Of a stretch of DNA of 64,000 bases, positions 10,249-60,250 are shown in pieces. This DNA is from Candidatus Poseidoniaceae archaeon (GTDB lineage: Archaea > Thermoplasmatota > Poseidoniia > Poseidoniales > Poseidoniaceae). Both the position numbers and the translations under genes were made by a program. Numbering within the stretch: the first letter of the stretch is position 1; each line of letters begins with the position of its first letter. The DNA lies in NCBI GenBank assembly GCA_938084455.1, contig CALKDX010000028.1, forward strand, positions 306 to 64,305, given 5' to 3'. The notes under the pieces are model-generated. The model ran no database searches and had not been told where the DNA came from. It worked only from the letters and a program-made list of their open reading frames with translations.

Positions 10249-11019
10249 TCACTCCTCGCCATCGACTTCGCTTTGCAACTGGAATTTGGCATTTCCGGGC
10301 AGCACCACTGAAGCGGCTGAAGCGAATTTTTCCGCACGGGCTGCGAAGGTTGAACCGATCAAGATTGCAATGCCAAAACCAAAGGGTGCGCCTGTGAGCG
10401 GGCGAGTGAAGTTGTTCGACTCATACGACGTGAGCAGTTGAGTGAACCCGTCGATCATGAGGGGGACGCAAAGGAGGACACCACAAGCAAGCCAAGCGAT
10501 GGTGCGTCGGTTTTTCACATACACATCGACAAGCCATGGATCTGGTAGCATGGAAAGGCAAGTGTCACGAACTGTCCATCGGTTGTGCGCTCTCCGGGAA
10601 AACGCCAGTCCACCAACCATGAACCCAAAGAAAATCCCAACGTCCCGGGTGCAGACCGGCATTTGATTGCCTCCAATGACCCAAGAGCGCTCATGGTTTT
10701 GATGGCAATTCAAATCCCCAAACGCATAGATGAAACCAGAATAAGGATCCAGTTCCGTCCACGCAAATGTCTCGTGCTGGTGCAGGGTTCCGTCAGCGTG
10801 TTGATGCAGGCTGCCGCTTTGTGAGTTCCCGTAGGACATCGAACCATCAGCAGTGGCGAAATCGAATGCATTCGCTCGACCGTTAAGTTCGACCACGGTG
10901 CCTTCAGGAAGCATCAGGGGGGCAAGGAAAAACGAGAAGAAAAAAAATCCACTGATTGAAGCAATCCATAATCCGATTTTCCGCTCCCTTAGACGGTCTT
11001 CAAGACCGTTTTTCTCCAT
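10249..11019 (-). CDS. DUF2085-family integral membrane protein
   Basis: 'NCHQNHERSWVIGGNQMPVCTRDVGIFFG' matches the DUF2085 CHQ..eRSf....q.PvCaRc.G signature. Several TM helices. Confidence 0.45.
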   Translation of the reverse strand: MEKNGLEDRLRERKIGLWIASISGFFFFSFFLAPLMLPEGTVVELNGRANAFDFATADGSMSYGNSQSGSLHQHADGTLHQHETFAWTELDPYSGFIYAFGDLNCHQNHERSWVIGGNQMPVCTRDVGIFFGFMVGGLAFSRRAHNRWTVRDTCLSMLPDPWLVDVYVKNRRTIAWLACGVLLCVPLMIDGFTQLLTSYESNNFTRPLTGAPFGFGIAILIGSTFAARAEKFASAASVVLPGNAKFQLQSEVDGEE

Positions 11020-11092
11020 GTGTTGCGCAACCGTGCTGAATCAATAGAGTTTCGCACTCGCTAATGCGAGCCTTGATGAGTCCCACCCCGAC

Positions 11093-11737
11093 TTGCGGAG
11101 CATGAACCTTGAGGAGGGCGAACCTGTTGGATTGTCCACCGGCCTCCAAGCAGGTGCCTTTTTGGGCCTTTATCTCGGATTCAGTCTAGCGGTCATTTCC
11201 GTGTTGACAGACCCCACAAAACTTCAACGCCTAGCGGGGTTAATGTGCACTCCACCTCTGTTTGGCGCCATCCTTCTTGGGCCTTTTTTGGCCAGAAGAC
11301 GTAAACCTGTGGACCTCGGAAGAAAACCACTTGCTCACGCACGTGAACTGCTGGAACCATTCAACGAAGGGCGAGGGAAGTGGCGGGTGTTAAGCCATGT
11401 CAAGAGCGATGGCATGTCGATTCGCATTGATATGCATGATTTGTCAAACTTATCCGGCGTGGTGGATGCTGCCCTTCCGCTTGCTGATTTATGTTCCTTG
11501 AAGTTCATTGTTGGACGAGGAATACCAAATTCCCGTCAACCTGAATTAAGGAAAGTGGTCCTCGACCTCGTGGAAGAAAGGGTCAGGATCACTCGACGAA
11601 GGCGAACTGCAAAATCAATTGAAATATCCCCCGTACCAACGGTGAAATATGTCAATCAGCAACAAAAAATTAATCGCGCTCTTATGATTTTATTACCGGT
11701 ATTCTCTTTCTTAGCCTGGCTAGAAATGCGTCACTGA
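11093..11737 (+). CDS. hypothetical membrane protein
   Basis: 214-aa ORF with two N-terminal TM helices and a C-terminal TM. No recognisable motif. Confidence 0.3.
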   Translation: MRSMNLEEGEPVGLSTGLQAGAFLGLYLGFSLAVISVLTDPTKLQRLAGLMCTPPLFGAILLGPFLARRRKPVDLGRKPLAHARELLEPFNEGRGKWRVLSHVKSDGMSIRIDMHDLSNLSGVVDAALPLADLCSLKFIVGRGIPNSRQPELRKVVLDLVEERVRITRRRRTAKSIEISPVPTVKYVNQQQKINRALMILLPVFSFLAWLEMRH

Positions 11738-11774
11738 GAAGCCTCATAGGAGTACTTAAGTCCAGAGGGTCGAT

Positions 11775-12707
11775 GTGACAACTATGCGGGAGGTCACCTT
11801 TTTCTGGAAACGGGCTCACGCTGGCAATCTGGTCAACGGGCCGCTGACAGATGTTTTTCAGAGCATACATTTCATTTCCTACGCACGTCGAATACCGAAA
11901 GATATTCGCTGTATTTTCAAGGTTCATTTTCAAGCAGGAAAAGGACCAAAAGACATTGATGGTTTGGAAATTCTTGACCTCTTGGAAGTGTTGATGGAAC
12001 CTGAAGCGGATTCCGACAGCACCATCATTTTAGCCCGACTCAACCATCCTGCTGCGAACCTCAGTGCTCGATCAAATGGCACTTCTGCGGTCCCTGGTGC
12101 TTGCTTCCTCGACGGTGAGGGCATTACCTATACCATTCAGGGACCACCCCTCAAACTCAGACTTTTCAGTGGTTTTTTGAGGATGTTTGCAAAGCCTGAC
12201 AGAACCAGTGCGAGAACCGTGAAGTTCGTATCAGATGATAATGGCCCTTTATCTCAAAAGCAAGTCAAGCTCGCCAAATTCGCCTACGACCGGGGCTATT
12301 TCGACACCCCAAAACGCATTCGTATTGCTGAGTTGGCACAAGAACTTGGGTTGGCTCGTGCAACGATTTCCGAGCACATGGCACGAATTGAATCCGCTAT
12401 TATGGATGATATGTTTTCTTCGTTTTCAGAAGTCTATGTTGCCCCAGAGACATTGCGAGAATTGTTGCAAATGATTTCCGATGACCACGACGATTTGGAT
12501 GGTGCGCACACCGACGGTTTCCGAGCGCTGATGATGCAGATGAGAACATCGATTGGAAACGAGGTCGCAAGCCTTGAACTTCATGGAATGGAAAGCGATG
12601 TTGATATTGAGGCCTTGATACAAGAATCCATGTCGAAGCACCAAGGCAACATCAGTTTCATCGATGATAAGTTGGACAACATAAACGATAATTTCAATCA
12701 ACATTGA
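11775..12707 (+). CDS. transcriptional regulator with a C-terminal HTH_10 (Bat/bacterio-opsin-activator-type) DNA-binding domain
   Basis: 'LSQKQVKLAKFAYDRGYFDTPKRIRIAELAQELGLARATISEHMARIESAIM' is a typical HTH_10 helix-turn-helix. Its stop overlaps the start of the downstream pcm gene. Confidence 0.5.
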   Translation: MTTMREVTFFWKRAHAGNLVNGPLTDVFQSIHFISYARRIPKDIRCIFKVHFQAGKGPKDIDGLEILDLLEVLMEPEADSDSTIILARLNHPAANLSARSNGTSAVPGACFLDGEGITYTIQGPPLKLRLFSGFLRMFAKPDRTSARTVKFVSDDNGPLSQKQVKLAKFAYDRGYFDTPKRIRIAELAQELGLARATISEHMARIESAIMDDMFSSFSEVYVAPETLRELLQMISDDHDDLDGAHTDGFRALMMQMRTSIGNEVASLELHGMESDVDIEALIQESMSKHQGNISFIDDKLDNINDNFNQH

Positions 12708-18515: not shown

Positions 18516-19751
18516 TTGATGAAAGAGAACAGTTTCTTCTCAGATAAGGGGAACCTCATGTCCGACCTTATTATGCAACAAATCGAAACCAGAATGGCCC
18601 AGAAGGGAATCGATCTCAATCTTCTAAGCGATCAAGAATTATCCTTAGTTGCAGAGCGATTTTTGGGCGATGCACCGCCCGGTCACCTTCCACGAGAAAC
18701 CGTGATTTCAACCCTCCAAAGCCAAGAACCAATTCAGCAATGGGCTATGGGCATCAAGTCGAGGGTAGCCGCTGCCGCTGCTGAAAAAATGACCGACACC
18801 ACTCGAACGGCTGTAACTCAAGCAAGGTCAGCATACGAGGCTCGCCGAGACAAAGACCCTCGATTGGCCATGATTGCCGACAAATTTGGCGAATGGCTCA
18901 ATGAATCAAATTACAACTCTGCAGAATTGACCGCAATGGCTGATGCAAATCAAGATGGCATCATCAGCAATGACGAAATTCTCAACCTGATACGCACCAT
19001 GTCAAATGCCGAACCCCCATCTTGGGTGGTCGACCTTGTTGTGCAGCACATTGATGCTGACGGCAACGGATCAATCACGCTTCCAGAATGGTGGGCCTTC
19101 CTCGAGTCGATTGGTTTTGAGGGTGCCAGCCCAGTCTTGGACCCCATCGTCCCAGAACCAACCGCTGCGCCAACTCCGAAACCAATCGCTGCGCCAACTC
19201 CGGAACCAATTATTGCGCCAACTCCTGCACCCGAACAAGATGCCCTTGCTGGCATAGCTTCGACGACCGCAGCCCCAGCAGCGGTTGCGGTCGCAGCAAC
19301 TGCAGCAGCAGTTGCCCCCCAAGCAGTTGCAAAGCCTACGCCTGAACCAGTTGCACAACCAACCCCCGTCGTAGAGGCCGTTCCTGCTGCTCCCGCATCA
19401 AGCGTCGACCCAATGAGTCACGAAGGCATCATTGAGGCACTCTCTGGAGCAAGACTGTTGTCTGAATTCAACTCTATTGTTGCCCAATCAACCTCGCAAA
19501 CATGCACGGTCAAAGTTCAGAGTACTGAGCGATCGCTCATGGCAAGCGGAGAATACCGCGGTGGTCAAACCATCACGGGTGCCCTCAACGGAAGCGATCA
19601 TGTTGTGGCCATTCGATTCCCAGTGGCCGAAACTGAATTCATTGAAGGACTCAAAACTGGCCAAATTGTAACCTCAGAGGCAGTCATTTACCGATGGTCC
19701 GGCGCACTTAAGCAGGCCAACCTAGAAGCCACTGGCGCTCGAATTGCTTGA
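18516..19751 (+). CDS. cytoplasmic EF-hand calcium-binding protein with a Pro/Ala/Thr-rich tandem-repeat linker and a C-terminal unknown domain
   Basis: Two canonical 12-residue EF loops, 'DANQDGIISNDE' and 'DADGNGSITLPE' (DxDxDG/NG...E). Linker 'PTAAPTPKPIAAPTPEPIIAPTPAPE'. No signal peptide. Starts 16 nt after the nucleotidyltransferase gene. Confidence 0.6.
   Translation: MMKENSFFSDKGNLMSDLIMQQIETRMAQKGIDLNLLSDQELSLVAERFLGDAPPGHLPRETVISTLQSQEPIQQWAMGIKSRVAAAAAEKMTDTTRTAVTQARSAYEARRDKDPRLAMIADKFGEWLNESNYNSAELTAMADANQDGIISNDEILNLIRTMSNAEPPSWVVDLVVQHIDADGNGSITLPEWWAFLESIGFEGASPVLDPIVPEPTAAPTPKPIAAPTPEPIIAPTPAPEQDALAGIASTTAAPAAVAVAATAAAVAPQAVAKPTPEPVAQPTPVVEAVPAAPASSVDPMSHEGIIEALSGARLLSEFNSIVAQSTSQTCTVKVQSTERSLMASGEYRGGQTITGALNGSDHVVAIRFPVAETEFIEGLKTGQIVTSEAVIYRWSGALKQANLEATGARIA
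19143..19235 (+). repeat. in-frame ~27-nt tandem repeat (about 3.4 copies) encoding P-[TI]-AAPTP-[KE]
   Basis: 'caaccgctgcgccaactccgaaac' / 'caatcgctgcgccaactccggaac' / 'caattattgcgccaactcctgcac' are seen directly. Confidence 0.5.
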
Positions 19752-50163: not shown

Positions 50164-52551
50164 CTATGATTGACCCTCGACGTGGAGGGAACGGCCACCG
50201 AGCGGTGCGAAAGCACGGCCGGATCCGTCGTAGAATTTGCCCATCCATTCCACAAAGTGGAGACGGGCTGCGTGAATGGTTGGGGAAAGAATACCGAGGG
50301 CCAAGGCGAAAACTTGGACGAAGAGGAAGATGACGAGGCAGAGGGCTGCAGTCAAGTATCCAGAGGCGCCTCCTGTTTCAAGGCCGGCTAAGATGTTCTC
50401 CCAACCGAGGATGATGGAAACTTCTGCAATCTTGACACCGGCAACGCCGACCGCCATGATGCGGAGGTAGGACAAAGTGTTAGCAAGAAGACCGAATGTT
50501 TCGATTGGACCCATGATGATGCCACCAGCCCAACCGAACCCTTCGTAGACAGCAAGACCGACAATAAGGCAGCAAATGCCGCCGATTAGAAGGAGGTTCC
50601 AGAGGGGTTGAACTTCAAACAATTCATTGTACCCCATCACGAAGTTACGGCAGACCATGAAGCCTCCAACGAGGATCATCAACCAAGAGCCTTTCTCGAA
50701 GAAAGCAGCGCTAAATCCGTGAGCTTTGTTGACATTGAGGAATCCGATGATGAGGCCAACCAAGATGTGGAAGACGCCGAGGTAAACGGCGAGAGAAACA
50801 TATTGCTCCAACCCGTGGCCTGCACTTGCACGGTGGAACGGCATCATCACGAATGGGTGGTCTGGGTCGCCAAGTCCGAGCAGAACTGCAAGTCCTTCGG
50901 GCAGGACAAACACATCGTATGTCCAATCATAGATGCTGGTGAGGAAGGCAATGTCTGGGCCCCATCGGTACCCGTCTTTGAGCGCCCCCGTTGCGTCATA
51001 CATGCTGCCATCCCACACGAAGCCAAAGCCTTCTGCGAAGATGATGCCCCAAATGATGCACCAAACACCCATCCAGCGGAGGACAGTCATGCCTTTCTGA
51101 GCAAGGGGGTCAACGGCGAAGGGCTTAGATCCAAGCCACAAAGAGAGAGCGACAAGAACCGCACCGTAGCCAAAGTCACCTAGAATCATTCCATAGATGA
51201 AAGGGAAGGTCATCATAATGAGCATTGATGGCTCAAAGGTACCATACTTTGGGCGACCGACGAGATCGACCAAAAGTTCGAATGGTTGGGTGGTTTTTCC
51301 ATTTTGGAATTCGATTGGGGGGACGGCGTCTTCATGGTGTTCATCCACTGAAGGCATAGCACGAATCATTGTGAGAGAGATGTCGAGTTCGGGGAGGTTG
51401 ATTTTCCCATCGCCATCCAGATCCATTGCTTTGACAAGAGGACCAATGTCCCAAGGAGGCAAATCGCCGATGCTCGTAGATTTCAAGGCCTGTTGGAACT
51501 CGTAACTATCGATCTTACCAGAATCATCCAAGTCGATTGATTTGAAGAATTCAAACACGGATTGCTTGGTCTTGATGAGGTAATCAGAAAGCATCACCAA
51601 TTCCTTGGCGACCTCGGGCGAATCATGATGGTCGTCGTGACCGTGGCCGTGGTGTGGGTCAACATAGGCTTCAATCGAAACGTGAGAAGCGATGGCACCG
51701 AGTTTATCCTTCACCATATCGCCTTCAGAGGTCGGAACCCAGCCGTCCAAAGCAAACGCTTGGTCGCTGACAGCCACGAGGGTTGGAGAGGTGTAGATTG
51801 CGTCTTCACGGGTCAAGTGTTCCTCAAGAGCGACAAGTGAGCGACCGTTTCGATCGACCCAAGCGTCGAGCGCTTCTTGAGAGGAAGCGATAGTGTTCTC
51901 GAGTGCGTCGATTTGAGAGAGTACGCTCGAGGCTTTTGAGGCAGGGGAGCCTTCGCCTGCTGGAATTTGAACCGCTTTAGCACCAAGTTCAGCAAGGCAG
52001 ATTTGCACCTCTGCTGCGTGTTGAGTCTGGCAAGCAACTGCGACGATGCCTGGTGCGGAGTGTAGAAGGATTTCCGTTCCAAGCGCTGAGAAGACAGACT
52101 TTGCTTTGCTGGCTCTTGGAGTTTCGCCCACATAGACTTCCAGACCGTCGAACCCGCCCATCAATTCCAGAGGGATGTCCAAAGGAGCAAGGCGTTCGAG
52201 GACCTGATGTTGTTCTTTCAAAGAGGAAATTGAGGCTTCACTTTCCCGGATGGTGTCAAGGTAGGAAAGTGCATCATCGATTTTGGATTCGAACCCTTCT
52301 ACCAATTTCTTGACTTTACCGAGCGACACTGGCCCCTCGATGTTCATCGCCTGAACGGAGGAGGAAACACCGCGAACCTTGGTGAGCAAGGCACTGGTTT
52401 TGTTTGCGCCTTCGGTGGAAAGCGCACGTCCAACACCGATTCCATCTTGGAAATGGCCGTATTCTTCAATGTGAACACATGAGAGCGTAGCGCACATTCG
52501 CAGAACTTCTTCCATCTTATCGACGGGAGCCGCCACGGTAAGGCGGGACAT
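50164..52551 (-). CDS. atpI: A-type ATP synthase subunit I (a-subunit/stator) carrying a His-rich and double EF-hand insertion
   Basis: ~795 aa. N-terminal cytoplasmic domain, then an insertion (aa ~305-412: PHHGHGHDDHHD ... DLDDSGKIDSYE ... DLDGDGKINLPE), then a C-terminal multi-TM domain with the conserved Arg region (LRIMAVGVAGVKIAE). Operon position between atpH and atpK. Confidence 0.8.
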   Translation of the reverse strand: MSRLTVAAPVDKMEEVLRMCATLSCVHIEEYGHFQDGIGVGRALSTEGANKTSALLTKVRGVSSSVQAMNIEGPVSLGKVKKLVEGFESKIDDALSYLDTIRESEASISSLKEQHQVLERLAPLDIPLELMGGFDGLEVYVGETPRASKAKSVFSALGTEILLHSAPGIVAVACQTQHAAEVQICLAELGAKAVQIPAGEGSPASKASSVLSQIDALENTIASSQEALDAWVDRNGRSLVALEEHLTREDAIYTSPTLVAVSDQAFALDGWVPTSEGDMVKDKLGAIASHVSIEAYVDPHHGHGHDDHHDSPEVAKELVMLSDYLIKTKQSVFEFFKSIDLDDSGKIDSYEFQQALKSTSIGDLPPWDIGPLVKAMDLDGDGKINLPELDISLTMIRAMPSVDEHHEDAVPPIEFQNGKTTQPFELLVDLVGRPKYGTFEPSMLIMMTFPFIYGMILGDFGYGAVLVALSLWLGSKPFAVDPLAQKGMTVLRWMGVWCIIWGIIFAEGFGFVWDGSMYDATGALKDGYRWGPDIAFLTSIYDWTYDVFVLPEGLAVLLGLGDPDHPFVMMPFHRASAGHGLEQYVSLAVYLGVFHILVGLIIGFLNVNKAHGFSAAFFEKGSWLMILVGGFMVCRNFVMGYNELFEVQPLWNLLLIGGICCLIVGLAVYEGFGWAGGIIMGPIETFGLLANTLSYLRIMAVGVAGVKIAEVSIILGWENILAGLETGGASGYLTAALCLVIFLFVQVFALALGILSPTIHAARLHFVEWMGKFYDGSGRAFAPLGGRSLHVEGQS

Positions 52552-52578
52552 TTCTGCGGTTGCGAACATGGGAACAAC

Positions 52579-53812: not shown

Positions 53813-54616
53813 TCAAGCGATACGCTCGACGGTTTCTGGAGTGATTCCTTCTTCTGGAGTCACTCGGAACACAAGAATTTTCAAGTTCTCAGGAGCGTTT
53901 CGGAATTTCGAAACAACCATCGAAGTTTCAAAATCTGTACCAATAGTTCGTACATTGAACGAGAGGACCATGTCTGCGATGGTGGACAGTTCTTGCTTGA
54001 TTGCTGCATCCAACCCGTTGGTTGATACTGAAATTAACAAGAGGCCTCGGTGCAATTGAGCGTGGGCTTGGAGCATTCGAACCATAGCGACAACACGAGC
54101 TGGATCTTCACGCTGTAGGAAGAAATCGAGGCTATCGACAACGGCCCTAAAGTAAGGACCAAGGGCCATAATTTCATTGGTGACTTCAGTCAGATAATCC
54201 TGATTGTTTTCATCAACAAATCGGGTTTGTGCAAGTCGTTGAATGTCAGCAAGTTGGAAGCCTTCAAGGCGATATCGGCTTGCCAATAGTTCTCGTTCCA
54301 AGACGGTTGAGTTGTATTCTTCGCCGATGGTTCGAACGTTGATGTCCATTGGCCAACTGTACTTTTGGAAGATTCTGACGATTTCAGCCTGACCTTCGTT
54401 TGTGGAGATGTAGAGGGTGTTTTCAGATTCTTCGGCAGGGGAGGTGAATTGCTTTGCGAACAATTCGCTTCCTGAACCAGTGTCTGTGAACGCAATCAGG
54501 GTAAACCCACGCGGGATGCCACCGTGCATTTCATTGTCGAACTTTGGCACGCCAAAGGAACCGACCTTACTGAAGAACTCCTCATCCTCGGGATCGAACT
54601 CAAATTTACGTGCCAT
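53813..54616 (-). CDS. KaiC/RecA-superfamily paralog with a degenerate Walker A (pseudo-ATPase)
   Basis: 'GGIPRGFTLIAFTDTGSGSELFAKQF' aligns with KaiC 'GG.p.gs.tLi.G.pGtGKT.fa.qF' but reads GSGSE instead of GTGKT. Walker-B-like 'RAVVDSLDFF'. Confidence 0.55.
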   Translation of the reverse strand: MARKFEFDPEDEEFFSKVGSFGVPKFDNEMHGGIPRGFTLIAFTDTGSGSELFAKQFTSPAEESENTLYISTNEGQAEIVRIFQKYSWPMDINVRTIGEEYNSTVLERELLASRYRLEGFQLADIQRLAQTRFVDENNQDYLTEVTNEIMALGPYFRAVVDSLDFFLQREDPARVVAMVRMLQAHAQLHRGLLLISVSTNGLDAAIKQELSTIADMVLSFNVRTIGTDFETSMVVSKFRNAPENLKILVFRVTPEEGITPETVERIA

Positions 54617-54627
54617 ACTTGTTCACC

Positions 54628-55218
54628 TCAATGGATTACGACTTGGCCACGGTCAATTAAATCGGTGCAGTACAAGTCAAGGTTGGACAACACCAATGGC
54701 GGGGTTTGGTCAGGAACATTGAGCACGACAGAGAGGATTTCACGCTGGCGGAAGGTGTTGATGAAGGTGTGAAGGTATTCAGCGAGAATGCGGTCTTCGT
54801 TGTAGATTGCGAGTGCATTGACGCTGTCGAGGAAGACGAAGTTTCTCACAGATGTTGTGGTCCGGAGAATGTAAAGCGTGCGCAACAAAACGGACTCGAG
54901 CATGATTGGACTGTCGACGAAATGAATGTTGGAGTAAGGAACATCAGTGCCTCCCAAAATACCAGATGAGACCAAATCGATGAATTGAATGTTGGAAACA
55001 TCCATTCCAATCGATTCGAAGGCTTGGATGATTTCGACTGCACCTCGGTTTGCGCTGATGTACACCCCACCCATCTCGAACATTTGCATGAGCGGTATGA
55101 TGGTGCTTGCAGTGACCATGAAGGCGTTCGAGTTTCCGCAACGAACCTGGACGGCACTGTTGAGGGCGACTTCGGTGAGTTGTTCAGCAATGCGTTGATC
55201 CAATTCGAACATAATCAT
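54628..55218 (-). CDS. truncated KaiC/RecA-fold paralog lacking a P-loop
   Basis: 196 aa. Retains the Walker-B-like hhhhDS ('NFVFLDSVNAL') and the downstream KaiC-like core, but has no GxxGxGK[ST]. ATGA overlap with the upstream KaiC gene. Confidence 0.45.
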   Translation of the reverse strand: MIMFELDQRIAEQLTEVALNSAVQVRCGNSNAFMVTASTIIPLMQMFEMGGVYISANRGAVEIIQAFESIGMDVSNIQFIDLVSSGILGGTDVPYSNIHFVDSPIMLESVLLRTLYILRTTTSVRNFVFLDSVNALAIYNEDRILAEYLHTFINTFRQREILSVVLNVPDQTPPLVLSNLDLYCTDLIDRGQVVIH

Positions 55219-56093
55219 GACCCCCAGCGCGACGTTTTATCGCTTTGTGCGCCCCATTTGAGCATCGGCGTGAGCATGACACCCAAAGGCGTGAGTTCGA
55301 TGGCGTGCTTGGCACGGCTGTGTGCTGTTCCACGCATTTTGACCACTTGTAAAAACCTGAGTAGGTGGCCCATTCGCTCAACGTCACCCATCACAATGAT
55401 GCCGTCTGCGATTGCTTCTTCCACACCGAAAGAGGACCAGTGGGCGTTTTCTGTTGCTGAAGTAATCTCCGAAATCAAAATGGTTGTGCATCCTAGTGTG
55501 GCCAGTTTCTTTCCAAGGGTGAACAGGAAATCACGAATCAATTGCTCGCTCTTAATTTTGTAACAAAGCGTGGTGACTGAATCGATGACGAGGCGGGTCA
55601 CACCGATGGTGTTGACGATATCGACGATGGCTTTGATCAATGCGTGAACGTCATCAAGTTCGAACGACGCCTTCTCAAGACCAAGCCACGAATACAAAAC
55701 GTCCATGTCGAAGACGTTGATGAGACCTGAGTCGACCATGTTCATGTCAAAAAAGGCATATTGGCGGATGTTTTCAAGCAACTTCACAGAAGGTTCTGTT
55801 GCTGTGAAGTGGGCACAAGCCTCTCCAGCCAGCGCACCACGGACAAGAAATTCCATTCCAAGGGTTGTCTTTCCTGAACCACATGTACCTGCAGCGAGCA
55901 CGGTAGAACCGTAGGGGATACCACCACGCAAAATCTCATCCAATCCATGAATCCCTGTGACACATCGGTCTCGGGTGTAAACGGCGGCTGGCTGCATGGG
56001 TAACAAACCGACCAGTTCGGTCGGGTTCATCAAGCAATCGCCCACAACCCAATGGATGAGAGCATTGCAACGCTTCCAAGCGTTGGTCGTCAA
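55215..56093 (-). CDS. KaiC-like RecA-superfamily ATPase (intact Walker A/B)
   Basis: 'GIHGLDEILRGGIPYGSTVLAAGTCGSGKTTLGMEFL' (P-loop) and 'TRLVIDSVTTL' (Walker B). The alternative start MNPTELV at 56030 would remove the 4-nt overlap with the upstream gene. Confidence 0.65.
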   Translation of the reverse strand: MTTNAWKRCNALIHWVVGDCLMNPTELVGLLPMQPAAVYTRDRCVTGIHGLDEILRGGIPYGSTVLAAGTCGSGKTTLGMEFLVRGALAGEACAHFTATEPSVKLLENIRQYAFFDMNMVDSGLINVFDMDVLYSWLGLEKASFELDDVHALIKAIVDIVNTIGVTRLVIDSVTTLCYKIKSEQLIRDFLFTLGKKLATLGCTTILISEITSATENAHWSSFGVEEAIADGIIVMGDVERMGHLLRFLQVVKMRGTAHSRAKHAIELTPLGVMLTPMLKWGAQSDKTSRWGS

Positions 56094-57193
56094 GCATCAC
56101 CGGGTGTGGGGGTTTCTTCGATGTACCACGACGTGAAGGCCGTTGAAATCCCATCCCACGCCAAGGATTGGCCTGTGACCATGAATAAACCGGTATCACC
56201 GCCCCATTCAGCCCGGAACATATCGTAGGGCCTGGCCTCATCAATTTGGGTGTAACGCAATTTCAAAACACCCGATCCATCGCTCATTCCGTTAAACATC
56301 CCAACACCCAAGAAACCCTCTACGCCAAGGTCGATCACCTGAGAGGCATTTCCACCGGCCTGGGAACTGGGATCACCTGTGAACAACACGGTGGTTTTTC
56401 CAGCAATAACTCCGGATTTAAACAGATGGTCGGAGACGATGGTTGAGGAGGTATGATTCAACGACCAACCTCGCAAAGCAATGGCGAAGTCGTTTGGATT
56501 ATAGATTTCAATCCACTCCGGACCACCGTCTGATGGCCGGGTCATAACCTCGGTAATTTGCAGGTCGTTATTGAGGCGCCCACCTTTGTGAACTTCAAGC
56601 ACAACTTGCCACGTTTCACCATCCTGGATAAACTGTCGATTCGCGGTGGATGAAGCGGTTGCAGTCCTGCGCTCGGTTCCGCCATCAAACAGCATTGTTC
56701 CAATTCTGCTTGCATTGCTGCTTTCAACGACCTCAATGGTTAGATGAATTGAAAACCCTTCGTCCAATCCTAAGCCGTCGATCATGTCGCCTTCAGTAAG
56801 GTTTTGAATGGCATTCACTTTCTGAATGTTGAGAGTTCCATCGCTCACCAATCCCGCCTGAACTCGGCCGTCATCAAGAGACAGGGCGGATTGGAGATGC
56901 CAATCGGCCGTTGCGTTGGCGTAATCCATACCGTCAACACCGGCGGGGACAAACCATCCCCCGTCGGATGTCAAGCGGTCTAAACCTTGTACTGCTGAGC
57001 GGTCAAGCCGATCCACAGCAGGGTCGTTTGAACCCATTTGGAGTTGAGCGAGTGATAAAAATGCAGTGAGGATCATCAAGAATAAGGCAAAGGCCGAAAG
57101 AAACTCGATGACAGCGGTGAGAGCAGTCTCGTCCCTTTCGAGTGAACGAGGCCCCCTGCTGCGCATGATTGTGCGTGGTCTTGGGCGATTCAA
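56090..57193 (-). CDS. lamin-tail-domain (LTD) protein with a TadE/class-III-signal-like N-terminal hydrophobic segment
   Basis: N-terminus 'RSLERDETALTAVIEFLSAFALFLMILTAFLSL' is basic, then acidic, then a ~22-aa hydrophobic segment, similar to TadE-like pseudopilins. C-terminus 'LQITEVMTRPSDGGPEWIEIYNPNDFAIALRGWSLNHTSSTIVSDHLF' matches LTD (PF00932 pattern I.Ev.....g..EfIElyN....a..LsGw.L). Confidence 0.5.
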   Translation of the reverse strand: MNRPRPRTIMRSRGPRSLERDETALTAVIEFLSAFALFLMILTAFLSLAQLQMGSNDPAVDRLDRSAVQGLDRLTSDGGWFVPAGVDGMDYANATADWHLQSALSLDDGRVQAGLVSDGTLNIQKVNAIQNLTEGDMIDGLGLDEGFSIHLTIEVVESSNASRIGTMLFDGGTERRTATASSTANRQFIQDGETWQVVLEVHKGGRLNNDLQITEVMTRPSDGGPEWIEIYNPNDFAIALRGWSLNHTSSTIVSDHLFKSGVIAGKTTVLFTGDPSSQAGGNASQVIDLGVEGFLGVGMFNGMSDGSGVLKLRYTQIDEARPYDMFRAEWGGDTGLFMVTGQSLAWDGISTAFTSWYIEETPTPGDA

Positions 57194-57292
57194 GAGGTTG
57201 CCGCATGGAGCGGGAGCAGAAAGTGAAATTCACGGTCCTTGCCCCCTTCGGGGGCGATGAGTCTTTGAAGCCCCCATGCGAGGCAGGGGTTA

Positions 57293-60250
57293 ATGTCGAA
57301 CCGGACGCAAGGGACCAGCGGCCAAAAAACGGGCAGTCTTTCGATGGTGCTGTTGCTCCTCCTAGCGTCCTTTGCGGGGCTGGCAAGCCTCCCCTTGTCC
57401 GGTGCTACAGAAAGCGGTGATGTCGCCATTTTGGGAACCGTATCTCCAACCAACGATTCATGGAGTTCATCTTGGGACCCGGTCACATTTGAAATAACGG
57501 TGGAAAACCAAGGGCTTGGCACAAGCACAAACCGGGCAACAAAGTGGTATGTTTGTCTGGGAGACATGCTCGGTTCCGTCTGTAAGTCATCCCCAGATGA
57601 ATCTGGTTCATTTTCCCTATCGAACATTTTTCCCGGAACCACCGTGGACATCACTTCGGACGCTGATTGGAACCCTGCAGGCGACGAAGGAACATTCACC
57701 ATCGTCTATGCCTTTGATGAAAACGACCAAGACTCAAGCGATGACATGCTGACCTTCAACATCAATTTGACCCGGTCCTATGTTGACCTCGCCGTTGACC
57801 CGACCTACAATCCGTTGAACGATGTAGAAAACACCGCCACCTATGACGGCAACATTGTCCTCAATTCCGGTACATCCTATGTGCTCGATTCGAAAGGCCA
57901 AGTGACAGCATGTAACACTTGCAATTTTGTGGCCATGCTCGGTTGGCAATTGTGGAGTTTAGATCAAGTCCCCGTGATGATTTCTGAAGCCTACACGAAT
58001 GTATCCAATCTGCCTTCCTGGGGAGGACAAACCTCGTTCACCCGTGCATTACCTGCCCTGAGCAGCGCCAACGAAGGTCAATTCAACCTCAAGTGGGGAT
58101 TGTTCAACAGCACTGGCACCCCGTACAGCGATCTTGACCCTTCAAATGATGTTTCGAGTGTCATCGTCACCTTCGATGACACAATCGATCTTCAAGCCAC
58201 ATCGATGGCCCCCTCCCATGATTCCAGTTCTGCGAGTTACTTCTACGGAGAAGACATGGTGACTGCAACGGTATCGAACATCGGAAATAAGACGGTCAAT
58301 CTTGTATCCGTCGCCTTCCAGGTGTACGATCCGATTGGTGAAGTGGAGTATGAAAGTTCATGCCTCCTCACAACCTTCCTACCGGGTGAAACTCGTACTT
58401 GCACCTTCAATGTCACAACCGTGGGCGACGACCGAACCCTGACCATTCAAGTGCCATCAGGCCACGATGAAGGCGATGAAGATAAATTCAGTAACAATGC
58501 ATTGTCGGAAGTCACAGACCTCGTCGCTGGTGCCATCAATGCCAACATCGATCAAGCCAGCACCACGGGCACCTACACCACCGGTGAAAACATTCAGATG
58601 TCTGCTCGTACAAGTTCGACAGCACCAGGGCCTCTGAACTATTCATGGTGGGTATCTGGTATCATCAACCTCGGTTATGGTCCTGAGTTGAACGTCTCTG
58701 GTGGCAGCTTAGGCCTAGGCGACCACATCATCACCTTGCGTGTGACCGATGTGTTTGGAGAATTAGAATCGGCCCACAAAGACATCACTGTGTACGATTA
58801 CATCTCTCTCGACAACGGCGAGTTGTTCACTGGACAAGCTGTTGCCCGGAGTTCAGCCTATTTCCATCATGAGTCATCGCTCCCAATCTTGGGCACCTCC
58901 TACGGTATCGGCGACGGAAAGGAGCCTTTGTTGCTGCTCTCCTTCGAAGTGCTTTCGACGGTCGATGATTCCCCGGAGGTCGGTATGGATTGGATGGAAA
59001 TTCAACTGAATATATCCTCTCTGCTGCCAACAAATATTCCACTTGAAACTGTGGATGTACGTTACCTGCCAACCATGGATGATTACATCTGGACCTACCT
59101 TGACGAGTACACGGTCAATGAGGATGACACAATTGATGTGACCCTCACCAGCAACGGTGTAATCCTCATCATAGGGGAATCCCCTCCAGCGAACCTCAGC
59201 ACAGGGCCAATCACAAGCACACAACTTGAAGGTGGCCAATTGCAACTCAATTGGACCACCACGGGCGACATAAACAACCCCTATGTTGGTGGATGGAACA
59301 TCTACAAACTCATGCTTGTACAACAAGCAGGCACATTGTTCCCTGACCCCGCCAACGGTGTGAACGAATTCATTTGGAAGGAACTGACTTCCGACACTCT
59401 GGCTGCCTCGATTGACCCTTCAAGCATCTCATGGATTGATCCTGAACCACTATCAACAGGTGATTGTGCTTCTTATGCGATTATGCCCGCCAGCAGAGAA
59501 GGTGCGCCAGATTTCGAGCACATCAATGTCAGTCTTGATGAAAATGGACAAGCGACTGCCTTCTGTGGTGATGCAATACCCCCTGTTTCAAGCGTCAGTA
59601 ACTTCCAGCACACATCCTCATTCACCAACGATACGGAGTGCTACAAAGTCGTCAACGATTGGAACATGTGCTATGAACTCAATCTCACATGGATGTGGCC
59701 AGAAAACGAACCAAACGGACAGCTGTTCTGGAACCTCTACATGATTGAGCAACAACCAGACGACATCGATTTGCGCTTCCTTACCCCGATTGCAAGCAAT
59801 CTAGCCTCCGTACCCGGGGAACAAGGCTATTACAACACCTCGGGCCTAGATGACTCCAGCATCCGCCCACTGAGGACGTATTACTTCATTCTCGCACCTG
59901 TGGATTCAGTTGGGAATGAACAATTGATTGCCGACTACCCATCCCCGAACGTCGAGCGTGTAACGATTGAGGATGATTGGTGGGACTTCTACCAACACTT
60001 GATCCCTGAGCCAGAACCTGAGCCAGAACCACCATTGGGTGTGCCATGGCTTGGAACATTGACAGATTACATGCAAGAGGATGAATTTACCACAACCGGG
60101 TTGGCAGCCTTGATCATGCTCGTTATGTCAATCATCACCTTGCCGTTGTTGTTGCAGAGGCGAAAGCGCCTCAAGCGGATCATGGCTGCAAGAAATCGCC
60201 GAGCAGGCGTGGAAACCACCGCCGATGAGTTTGACGACTTCTTCGATTGA
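57293..60250 (+). CDS. large secreted surface protein with CARDB-like repeats, a PEPEPEP linker, a C-terminal TM anchor and a basic cytoplasmic tail
   Basis: 985 aa. Signal peptide (MVLLLLLASFAGLASLPLSGA). 'FEITVENQGLGTSTN' and 'TATVSNIGNKTVNLVSVAFQVYD' are CARDB-like. 'PEPEPEPEPPLG'. TM 'LAALIMLVMSIITLPLLL', then RRKRLKR. Very many N-x-S/T sequons. Confidence 0.55.
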   Translation: MSNRTQGTSGQKTGSLSMVLLLLLASFAGLASLPLSGATESGDVAILGTVSPTNDSWSSSWDPVTFEITVENQGLGTSTNRATKWYVCLGDMLGSVCKSSPDESGSFSLSNIFPGTTVDITSDADWNPAGDEGTFTIVYAFDENDQDSSDDMLTFNINLTRSYVDLAVDPTYNPLNDVENTATYDGNIVLNSGTSYVLDSKGQVTACNTCNFVAMLGWQLWSLDQVPVMISEAYTNVSNLPSWGGQTSFTRALPALSSANEGQFNLKWGLFNSTGTPYSDLDPSNDVSSVIVTFDDTIDLQATSMAPSHDSSSASYFYGEDMVTATVSNIGNKTVNLVSVAFQVYDPIGEVEYESSCLLTTFLPGETRTCTFNVTTVGDDRTLTIQVPSGHDEGDEDKFSNNALSEVTDLVAGAINANIDQASTTGTYTTGENIQMSARTSSTAPGPLNYSWWVSGIINLGYGPELNVSGGSLGLGDHIITLRVTDVFGELESAHKDITVYDYISLDNGELFTGQAVARSSAYFHHESSLPILGTSYGIGDGKEPLLLLSFEVLSTVDDSPEVGMDWMEIQLNISSLLPTNIPLETVDVRYLPTMDDYIWTYLDEYTVNEDDTIDVTLTSNGVILIIGESPPANLSTGPITSTQLEGGQLQLNWTTTGDINNPYVGGWNIYKLMLVQQAGTLFPDPANGVNEFIWKELTSDTLAASIDPSSISWIDPEPLSTGDCASYAIMPASREGAPDFEHINVSLDENGQATAFCGDAIPPVSSVSNFQHTSSFTNDTECYKVVNDWNMCYELNLTWMWPENEPNGQLFWNLYMIEQQPDDIDLRFLTPIASNLASVPGEQGYYNTSGLDDSSIRPLRTYYFILAPVDSVGNEQLIADYPSPNVERVTIEDDWWDFYQHLIPEPEPEPEPPLGVPWLGTLTDYMQEDEFTTTGLAALIMLVMSIITLPLLLQRRKRLKRIMAARNRRAGVETTADEFDDFFD

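Follow-up and report, generated by a model that had tools for sequence, protein, structure and literature searches.

A Thermoplasmatota-wide operon of one active and two degenerate KaiC-like proteins and its surface-protein neighbours in Marine Group II archaea

The DNA considered here is a stretch of 64,000 nucleotides (nt), called the window below, from a Marine Group IIa (MGIIa) archaeon (Candidatus Poseidoniaceae archaeon, contig CALKDX010000028.1). It carries a cluster of five genes, which we label K1, K2, K3, LTD and BIG. K1, K2 and K3 encode KaiC-like proteins, and together they form an ancient operon found across the Thermoplasmatota, with a fixed division of labour between one active and two degenerate paralogues. 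LTD, which encodes a lamin-tail-domain protein, and BIG, which encodes a 985-amino acid (aa) surface protein, are additions to this triad that are specific to Marine Group II (MGII). We regard the array as more than a chance arrangement, since it recurs throughout an archaeal phylum and strong purifying selection acts on its genes.

Among the archaea of the surface ocean, Poseidoniales (Marine Group II) dominate. They are uncultured, and what is understood of their particle attachment and cell surface has largely been inferred from gene lists. In these archaea, the five genes described here make up a strictly conserved surface module, and the triad at its core is repeatedly linked to genes for type IV pilins. 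The idea that KaiC-like ATPases, along with inactivated paralogues, serve archaea as signalling hubs thereby gains a concrete case that can be tested. We also propose that the triad is a natural instance, outside DNA repair, of a RecA-fold hetero-oligomer in which one subunit is catalytic and two are not. The proteins are either small and soluble or equipped with short, defined tails, and their biochemistry could be studied without an MGII culture.

An original prediction, made from the letters of the window alone, had placed five open reading frames (ORFs) at this locus, and all five are present. Its observation is largely correct; the details concerning translational coupling, the TadE family and CARDB repeats are wrong. 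The features of the locus are as follows:

57293..60250, plus strand: BIG, 985-aa surface protein (ORF calling)
57167..57292: divergent intergenic region between BIG and LTD, 126 bp
56090..57166, minus strand: LTD protein, 358 aa (ORF calling; start set by homologues)
57047..57166, minus strand: N-terminal 40 residues of the LTD protein, MRSRGPRSLERDETA↓LTAVIEFLSAFALFLMILTAFLSLA, putative class III signal peptide and hydrophobic helix (the arrow marks the putative cleavage site, here and below)
56031..56089, minus strand: spacer between LTD and K1
55215..56030, minus strand: K1, single-domain KaiC-family ATPase (PF06745; an alternative start at 55997 gives 260 aa)
54628..55218, minus strand: K2, 196-aa truncated KaiC-like paralogue (sub-threshold match to PF06745 and hhalign match to the K3 family)
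53813..54616, minus strand: K3, 267-aa KaiC-family pseudo-ATPase (PF06745)

The K1-K2-K3 triad

A K3 profile was searched against 1.84 billion representative proteins and found full-length relatives at 100-220 bits; two of the relative clusters carry the source names 'Candidatus Poseidoniia archaeon' (P0243) and 'Thermoplasmata archaeon' (P0255). For the genome scan, a distant alignment of seven K3 sequences was used against one genome per GTDB species, which returned 80 loci. ORFs were called in these loci, and iterative hidden Markov model (HMM) searches were run for K1, K2 and K3. The loci come from Marine Group III (MGIII), DHVE2/Aciduliprofundum, Methanomassiliicoccales and many other Thermoplasmata, with Aciduliprofundum and Methanomassiliicoccales represented by metagenome-assembled genomes (MAGs) only. 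The MGII loci referred to by name below are L001 (MGIIb), L084 (an MGIIa MAG), and L085 and L086 (MGII-type metagenomic loci).

With MGII included, the three genes lie in the order K1-K2-K3 on the same strand, K2 in the middle, in 82 of the 84 sources. They are tightly packed, the median gaps being -8 nt between K1 and K2 and -4 nt between K2 and K3 (75-78 loci). The triad was already present in the ancestor shared by much of Thermoplasmatota, and it is the triad that constitutes the conserved unit, not the four-gene coupled operon that the original prediction had drawn by counting LTD in.

Two loci in the scan are unusual. On a soil Thermoplasmatota MAG (L043, 1..1275), residues 1-258 of K1 and 26-190 of K2 are joined in a single ORF; this fusion could be natural, in which case it supports a physical interaction, or could be an assembly artefact. 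A contig labelled Candidatus Neomarinimicrobiota bacterium (L022) carries an MGIII-type triad whose K3 is 89% identical to the MGIII query, and it probably reflects bin contamination.

On its sequence, K1 is a competent KaiC-type ATPase. It matches the Pfam family KaiC (PF06745) with 176.3 bits against a gathering cutoff of 26.6, and the intact P-loop that the original prediction had read in it is there: the Walker A sequence GTCGSGKTT lies at 55863..55889, and a KMRG motif is also present. The canonical Walker A form (GxxGxGK[ST]) is found in K1 at 71 of 72 loci, the sole exception being cut by a contig end. The nearest solved relatives of K1 are the KaiC CI domain, PH0186 and PH0284 (97-143 bits). 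Against the PDB sequences of FlaH and XRCC3 it scores 25.6 and 22.5 bits, respectively, and the PDB FlaH structures as a whole range from 20.6 to 25.6 bits.

K3 is also a clear member of the family (58.7 bits to PF06745, with the same cutoff), with a further, sub-threshold match to DUF7125 (22.9 bits against 29.1). As had been predicted, its P-loop is mutated: the Walker A position reads GSGSEL (54461..54478), the Lys-Thr pair being replaced by Ser-Glu. A canonical Walker A is found in K3 at none of 79 loci, and the form G[SA]G-x-[ED]-L at all 79. The acidic residue occupies the position of the Mg-coordinating Ser/Thr, and the Lys is retained at only 37 of the 79 loci. K3 is thus predicted to be unable to use its own P-loop in the canonical way. 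In the HMMER alignment of K3 with KaiC, GtGKt becomes GsGse and KFRG becomes KFRN, so that the K-F-R motif is retained. The equivalent Lys and Arg in structures of KaiC CI touch the nucleotide bound by the adjacent subunit, and K3 may therefore still act in trans.

K2 is the most reduced of the three. The reading of it as a KaiC-fold paralogue without a P-loop holds: there is no glycine-rich loop, the protein ends before the K-x-R segment, and the match to PF06745 reaches 20.9 bits, below the cutoff. In a family-to-family comparison by hhalign, K2 aligns with K3 at 94% probability over aa 48-195, which is the post-P-loop core only. K2 has no PDB sequence match, and its AlphaFold2 model, built from a shallow alignment of sequences 84-97% identical to the query, has a predicted local distance difference test (pLDDT) score of 45 and was unusable for fold searches. 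K2 appears to be a stripped-down KaiC core.

K2 and K3 are ancient pseudo-ATPases under strong purifying selection and not pseudogenes. The ratio of nonsynonymous to synonymous substitution rates (dN/dS) is 0.01-0.04 for K1, K2 and K3, where dS exceeds 1 and is near saturation; it is about 0.01 for K2 and 0.01-0.035 for K3, and 0.06-0.13 for LTD and BIG. K2 is 85-99% identical within MGIIa. Between the window and MGIIb, identity is 80% for K1, 66% for K2, 57% for K3, 40% for LTD and 26% for BIG; K1 is 51-54% identical to its counterparts in other classes. The missing catalytic motifs of K2 and K3 might be taken to mark decaying pseudogene fragments left by a recent duplication, and the K3 gene of L084 (about 10520..11380) has two in-frame stops where the window protein has Glu and Gln, in an otherwise well-conserved sequence. 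We give this explanation almost no credence and have set it aside, as it is refuted by the low dN/dS and by a degenerate state shared by all 79 loci across the phylum; the identity of K2 across MGIIa and the intact reading frames of all 63 complete metagenomic arrays described below also speak against it. The stops in L084 may reflect a sequencing or assembly error, or inactivation at the level of a strain. The Walker A counts of K1 and K3, taken with dN/dS, bear out the functional set of one active and two degenerate paralogues that had been proposed for the window.

Surface and pilin-like neighbours of the triad

In MGII, the triad stands in a larger array. A metagenome scan with an alignment of LTD returned 80 loci at 58-99% identity, and the order BIG(-) LTD(+) K1 K2 K3 is kept in all 80 as far as the contigs reach. 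It is complete in 63; the other 17 arrays lack genes at one end only, which is consistent with contig ends, although these were not checked singly. MGIIb loci carry the same five-gene array, and BIG is homologous and divergently placed in every MGII locus. The original prediction staked itself on co-localisation of the genes in related genomes, and wherever the contig allows, this is what the metagenomic MGII loci display. LTD homologues were found only in Poseidoniales (342 matches) and were absent from the 80 non-MGII loci.

The LTD protein begins with a short basic segment on the cytoplasmic side, followed by a cleavage motif like that of class III (pilin) signals, a hydrophobic helix and two domains. 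It matches the lamin-tail family LTD (PF00932), which has an immunoglobulin (Ig)-like fold, with 46.2 bits, above the cutoff of 34.3. In its AlphaFold2 model (pLDDT 74), a long N-terminal helix is followed by a well-predicted alpha/beta domain (aa ~66-195) and the Ig-like lamin-tail domain (~200-350). A Foldseek search of the whole model against the PDB found the lamin Ig domain only, and the isolated middle domain has no Pfam match at E <= 10.

Its N-terminus is the most conserved part: TAVIEFL.AF.LFL.I..AF is invariant across MGII, and the remaining protein is 40-65% identical. The pattern consists of basic residues, an acidic pair, [A/G], [L/I/M]-T-A-V-I and the hydrophobic helix. It follows [DE]-x-[AG]↓[LVIM]-[ST]-[PA]-V-I, in parallel with the DESA↓VSPVIATILMVAITVVLAAVLY of the triad-linked Pilin_N proteins described below. 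Set beside the FlaFind-type motif (a short charged N-terminus, [GA] at -1 and a hydrophobic helix of some 20 residues), RDETA↓LTAVIEFLSAFALFLMILTAFL of the window is similar except for Thr at -2, where homologues have R, E, G or S; the triad-linked Pilin_N proteins are equally variable at this position (DESA↓VSPVI). No other ORF in all 64 kb has a pilin motif. The original prediction called this N-terminus pilin- and TadE-like. The class III resemblance stands at the level of the motif, and we claim no more than that for LTD because the HMM and hhalign tests, given in the next section, failed. The 'TadE-like' label was dropped: the whole protein has no match to TadE at E <= 1, and the profile-profile comparison with the Pilin_N proteins was not significant.

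BIG has a signal-peptide-like N-terminus, a large ectodomain rich in N-x-S/T sequons and a C-terminus in which a PEPEPEP linker leads to a transmembrane helix and a cytoplasmic tail of ~35 aa (tail region 60137..60250, plus strand; tail peptide QRRKRLKRIMAARNRRAGVETTADEFDDFFD), with a basic cluster and then DEFDDFFD. This agrees with the secreted, C-terminally anchored protein that had been described. The 'CARDB-repeat' description does not survive, as a single stretch matches CARDB (PF07705) at 22.3 bits, just under the cutoff of 22.7. Between lineages, BIG is 26-42% identical (ectodomain), while the PEPEP linker, the helix, the polybasic juxtamembrane stretch and the terminal motif are kept. 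That motif reads DEFDDFF[DE] in MGIIa, DDFDEFFD in L001 and DELEDLFY in L085 (MGIIb-type), and was followed through about 60 metagenome loci. We suggest that the acidic-aromatic tail of BIG is a candidate docking peptide for a cytoplasmic partner, which would most obviously be the triad.

Outside MGII and MGIII, we surveyed the genes downstream of the triad in the 35 Thermoplasmata loci that had enough sequence. The next co-directional gene encodes a small protein with the pilin motif ...DE(S/K/E)(A/G)VSPVIATILMVAITVVLAAVLY in 15 of the 35, and such a gene lies one ORF further in three more. These pilin genes are co-directional with the triad at a gap of 4-142 nt and occur in up to three tandem copies; within the 20-kb flanks, the only pilin-motif ORFs are those adjoining the triad. 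In L050 and L085, the pilin-motif genes behind the triad match Pilin_N (PF07790) with 42-43 bits against a cutoff of 25.2. A Pilin_N gene also directly follows K3 in L085 and L086, the order in L085 being BIG(-), LTD, K1, K2, K3, Pilin_N. Together with the 15 Thermoplasmata loci, these two MGII-type loci substantiate the link to type IV filaments that had been suspected in the window.

Other lineages attach other genes. DUF763 follows K3 in eight DHVE2 loci, and a TraB/PrgY-like gene does so in three loci. MGIII has a different four-gene operon, with no adjoining pilin in any of 31 loci: a conserved 141-aa acidic protein, which has no Pfam match, is encoded upstream and overlaps the K1 start (L004..L041, for example L004 8202..8627). 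The DUF763 protein (361 aa) begins 1-6 nt after K3 in L055, L058, L070, L071, L074, L075, L080 and L082 (DHVE2/Aciduliprofundum). Its segment GIGPSTVRALAYI resembles a helix-hairpin-helix, which hints at a nucleic-acid-related partner in this lineage; a literature search on DUF763 gave nothing useful.

In L001, a 338-aa polytopic membrane protein (10825..11841), which has no homologue in the window, is encoded convergently to K3. It has the A24 prepilin-peptidase-like motifs LDHKTRRVSND and GGADAK, and its match to Arc_PepC_II is sub-threshold.

Possible roles of the triad

Several known systems resemble the triad in part. ArlH (FlaH) is likewise a single-domain protein of KaiC/RecA fold encoded with type-IV-filament genes, and it is a nucleotide- and phosphorylation-dependent modulator rather than a motor, a role to which we liken that of the triad. 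JGI labels K2 homologues 'FlaH', and the ArlH model is the best NCBIfam match of K3. However, K3 scores 56.9 bits and K1 34.1 bits against an equivalog cutoff of 215, and ArlH has an intact Walker A and stands beside ArlI and ArlJ, whereas the triad comprises three paralogues, two of them inactive, with neither gene nearby. All MGIIa genera and half of the MGIIb genera have a separate archaellum (FlaHIJ) operon elsewhere (PMC6461757, PMC6336850), so ArlI/J-type machinery could act in trans.

CirA of Haloferax volcanii is KaiC-like and genetically tied to type IV pilin status and surface behaviour: it links the pilin H-domain to motility and lowers arl transcription (PMC10983859). It differs from the triad in being a single active protein, encoded beside the arl cluster, that acts at least partly on transcription.

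KaiC itself, with PH0186 and PH0284, provides the best sequence relatives of K1, with shared Walker A, Walker B and K-x-R-G. The cyanobacterial protein, however, is a fused CI-CII pair of two tandem RecA-like domains (about 500 aa), whereas K1-K3 (196-271 aa) are single-domain proteins, two of which are catalytically disabled. A bona fide circadian KaiC is not indicated by the NCBIfam KaiC equivalogs (97-127 bits against cutoffs of 408-546), and Pfam and NCBIfam scans, which took in the ORFs of the window and those flanking genes that were sampled, showed no KaiA or KaiB match.

Rad51-paralogue complexes (Rad55-Rad57, Shu) and the aRadC protein SSO2452 are comparable in being hetero-oligomers of active and degenerate RecA-fold paralogues, as is proposed for the triad. 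The triad differs from them in its much stronger sequence affinity to KaiC than to RadA/Rad51 and in having surface proteins, not repair genes, as partners; the best NCBIfam scores against equivalogs for RadA, RadB and Rad51 paralogues are 19-20 bits, with cutoffs of 172-278.

In euryarchaeal PilA-type systems, large Ig-like minor pilins (arCOG02911, 250-550 aa) and S-layer-like proteins accompany the pilins (PMC4858521). As in these pilins, a segment resembling a class III signal precedes beta-rich or Ig-like domains in LTD; unlike them, LTD fails Pilin_N, adds alpha/beta and lamin-tail domains and belongs to a Poseidoniales-only family.

The original prediction had stated that the gene combination matches no described module. 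This is too strong, as Makarova et al. (2016) reported KaiC-family ATPases as recurrent neighbours, and probable regulators, of archaeal type IV pilus loci (PMC4858521). The KaiC-pilus link is already known; the phylogenetic depth of the triad, its fixed pseudo-ATPase subunits and the strict MGII array make this case worth biochemical study. Comparison with the PADLOC anti-phage models gave a weak mad8 match for K1 (23 bits) and none for the other four proteins, and identity as a defence system was rejected for want of such support. We found no literature description of the triad or of the MGII five-gene array, in a search that did not cover Makarova et al. 2017, where archaeal KaiC homologues, inactivated ones included, are reportedly presented as signalling hubs.

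The reading that we favour, with some reserve, is a hetero-oligomeric KaiC-like switch that acts on pilin-type surface proteins and is akin to ArlH or CirA. K1, K2 and K3 would form one hetero-oligomer, probably ring-shaped, on the cytoplasmic side of the membrane. K1 alone would bind and hydrolyse ATP, and possibly phosphorylate itself; K3 would contribute trans-acting residues, and K2 and K3 would provide binding surfaces. The complex would be a nucleotide-dependent switch determining whether type-IV-pilin-like membrane proteins are held in the membrane, assembled or expressed, comparable to ArlH, which modulates ArlI/ArlJ, the motor of the archaellum, and to CirA, which connects pilin status with surface behaviour in Haloferax. 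The small Pilin_N proteins whose genes lie immediately downstream would be its clients in most Thermoplasmata. For MGII, we envisage that the module has gained the pilin-like LTD protein, with its alpha/beta and lamin-tail domains outside the cell, and the divergently transcribed 985-aa BIG, with the tail of BIG as a plausible docking peptide; a prepilin peptidase and ArlI/J- or PilB/C-type machinery would come from genes at other sites of the genome.

Several points weigh against this reading. The only grounds for a hetero-oligomer are synteny, coupling and the complementary motifs. A pilin is not the fourth gene everywhere, as the DUF763, TraB/PrgY-like and MGIII acidic cytoplasmic proteins illustrate, and since the attached gene varies by lineage, the triad may serve several outputs. 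A Walker-A regular expression, the one means of search used here, picked out no PilB/ArlI-type ATPase less than 10 kb from the triad in the 84 sources. As for LTD, its middle domain fits PAS/Cache sensor folds about as well as pilin heads, and the charge at -2 of the putative cleavage site is inconsistent. Neither TadE (PF07811) nor Pilin_N is matched by the protein, its isolated N-terminus has no match at E <= 10, and the hhalign comparison of the LTD family with the triad-linked Pilin_N proteins is not significant (probability 0.2%).

The variety of attached genes leads directly to the main rival, which we consider somewhat unlikely: a general signalling hub of KaiC type, a switch driven by phosphorylation or nucleotides with lineage-specific inputs and outputs, in which the link to pilins or to the MGII surface genes is one regulatory connection among several, for instance through control of transcription, and there is no direct action on pilins or their machinery. 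It is in keeping with the lineage-dependent fourth gene and with the fact that K1 is closest to KaiC CI and the single-domain KaiC homologues of Pyrococcus, not to FlaH; CirA, too, works by lowering arl transcription (PMC10983859). However, no DNA-binding, KaiB-like or other output domain was seen in the window or the conserved flanks, and the pilin linkage, where present, is very tight, as the co-directional placement and the gap of 4-142 nt attest. We see a smaller chance that the MGII genes make up an unrecognised surface apparatus that is not a filament, with K1-K2-K3 as an engine or switch wired to BIG and to a pilin-like sensor or adhesin. The latter would combine the class III helix with a PAS/Cache-like domain and a lamin-tail Ig domain, and the connecting segments would be the invariant pilin helix and, in BIG, the DEFDDFFD tail; alternatively, a DNA-binding pilin could be coupled to RecA-fold proteins for DNA uptake. 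If the non-filament version is true, the planktonic archaea that are most abundant worldwide would possess a device for signalling at the surface, working inside-out or outside-in.

A role in DNA repair or uptake is a weaker proposal than the general hub, and we think it improbable. The triad would in that case be a mediator of repair or recombination like the RadA/Rad51 paralogues (compare Rad55-Rad57 and aRadC), and a coupling to DNA uptake through pili is conceivable, in which the lamin-tail domain would bind DNA outside the cell. Active and pseudo-ATPase subunit sets are typical of Rad51-paralogue complexes. NCBI labels K3 homologues 'RAD55 family ATPase'; SSO2452, which is described as a RadA paralogue, is matched by the K3 profile at 103 bits and by the K1 profile at 68.5 bits; and DUF763, with its apparent helix-hairpin-helix, lies directly after K3 in DHVE2. 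Lamin-tail domains also occur in haloarchaeal proteins of extracellular DNA metabolism (PMC5118699). Yet K1 has 176 bits to the Pfam KaiC family, as opposed to E-values of 3e-4 to 0.06 for the RadA, RadB and RecA models and the low score to XRCC3 given above. No nuclease, helicase or Ced/Com-type gene is consistently linked to the triad, the MutS/MutL genes near L085 and L086 are on the opposite strand and absent at other loci, and the LTD protein has no nuclease domain.

Finally, the triad itself could be the motor that assembles or extracts the adjoining pilin-like proteins, in place of an ArlI/PilB-type ATPase and a TadC-type platform. This we hold to be very unlikely. In its favour, no PilB/ArlI-type ATPase was seen within 10 kb in the 84 sources, and the triad is retained in MGIIb, half of whose genera have no archaellum operon (PMC6461757). 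On the other side, the array encodes no polytopic membrane platform, MGIII and DHVE2 retain the triad without adjoining pilins, and we know of no KaiC-family protein that drives filament assembly. Moreover, euryarchaeal pilins are often encoded apart from their ATPase and TadC genes (PMC4858521).

Gene models, non-coding elements and neighbouring genes

The gene models of the locus needed two corrections. LTD homologues begin at the ATG at 57166 and not at the TTG at 57193, and the 99-bp promoter region that had been proposed (57194..57292) therefore becomes an intergenic region of 126 bp. The proposal of four translationally coupled genes is also only partly upheld. K1 and K2 overlap by stop and start in ATGA, and K2 and K3 are 11 nt apart, with GGTGA inside the gap. 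An overlap of LTD with K1 would require a TTG start of K1 at 56093. K1 homologues are 252-260 aa long and their aligned starts correspond to the ATG at 56030 or that at 55997, so coupling of LTD with K1 is unsupported. The resulting LTD-K1 spacer is 59-92 nt long, comparable lengths being 62 nt in L084, 93 nt in L085 and 86 nt in L001.

Both non-coding regions contain palindromic elements. The region between BIG and LTD has a 17-nt sequence, TTCAAAGACTCATCGCC, followed by a perfect palindrome, GCCCCCGAAGGGGGC. The former is identical in the corresponding region of L084 (7686..8000), even though the LTD proteins are only 57% identical, and may represent an operator or promoter element. The LTD-K1 spacer holds the palindrome AACGCTTGGAAGCGTT. 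Since other MGII loci also retain 60-93 nt at this place, K1-K3 may have their own promoter or a regulatory hairpin.

On the minus strand, the gene order is LTD, K1, K2, K3, then a UbiE/MenG-type methyltransferase and the A-type ATPase operon; K3 and the methyltransferase gene are separated by 46 bp in the window, with no Pilin_N gene between them. One tRNA-Ser gene lies just beyond BIG, and the remaining genes of the window are housekeeping genes, including Orc1/Cdc6, SMC/ScpB, eIF2-gamma, HMG-CoA reductase and CtaA/CtaB. The original prediction was right that no ArlI/ArlJ-type gene is present: Pfam and NCBIfam scans found none among the long ORFs of the window, nor any PilB/TadC-type or A24 peptidase gene.

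Within the neighbouring ATPase operon, subunit I of the A/V-type ATPase (50164..52569, minus strand, 801 aa) has an inserted EF-hand pair at aa ~334-394, with Pfam scores of 34.5 bits for EF-hand_1 and 33 bits for EF-hand_7. The L084 homologue is 677 aa long, and its record lists V_ATPase_I only. A calcium-binding insert is unusual in a stator and proton-channel subunit, and a second EF-hand protein is encoded in the window at 18516..19751.

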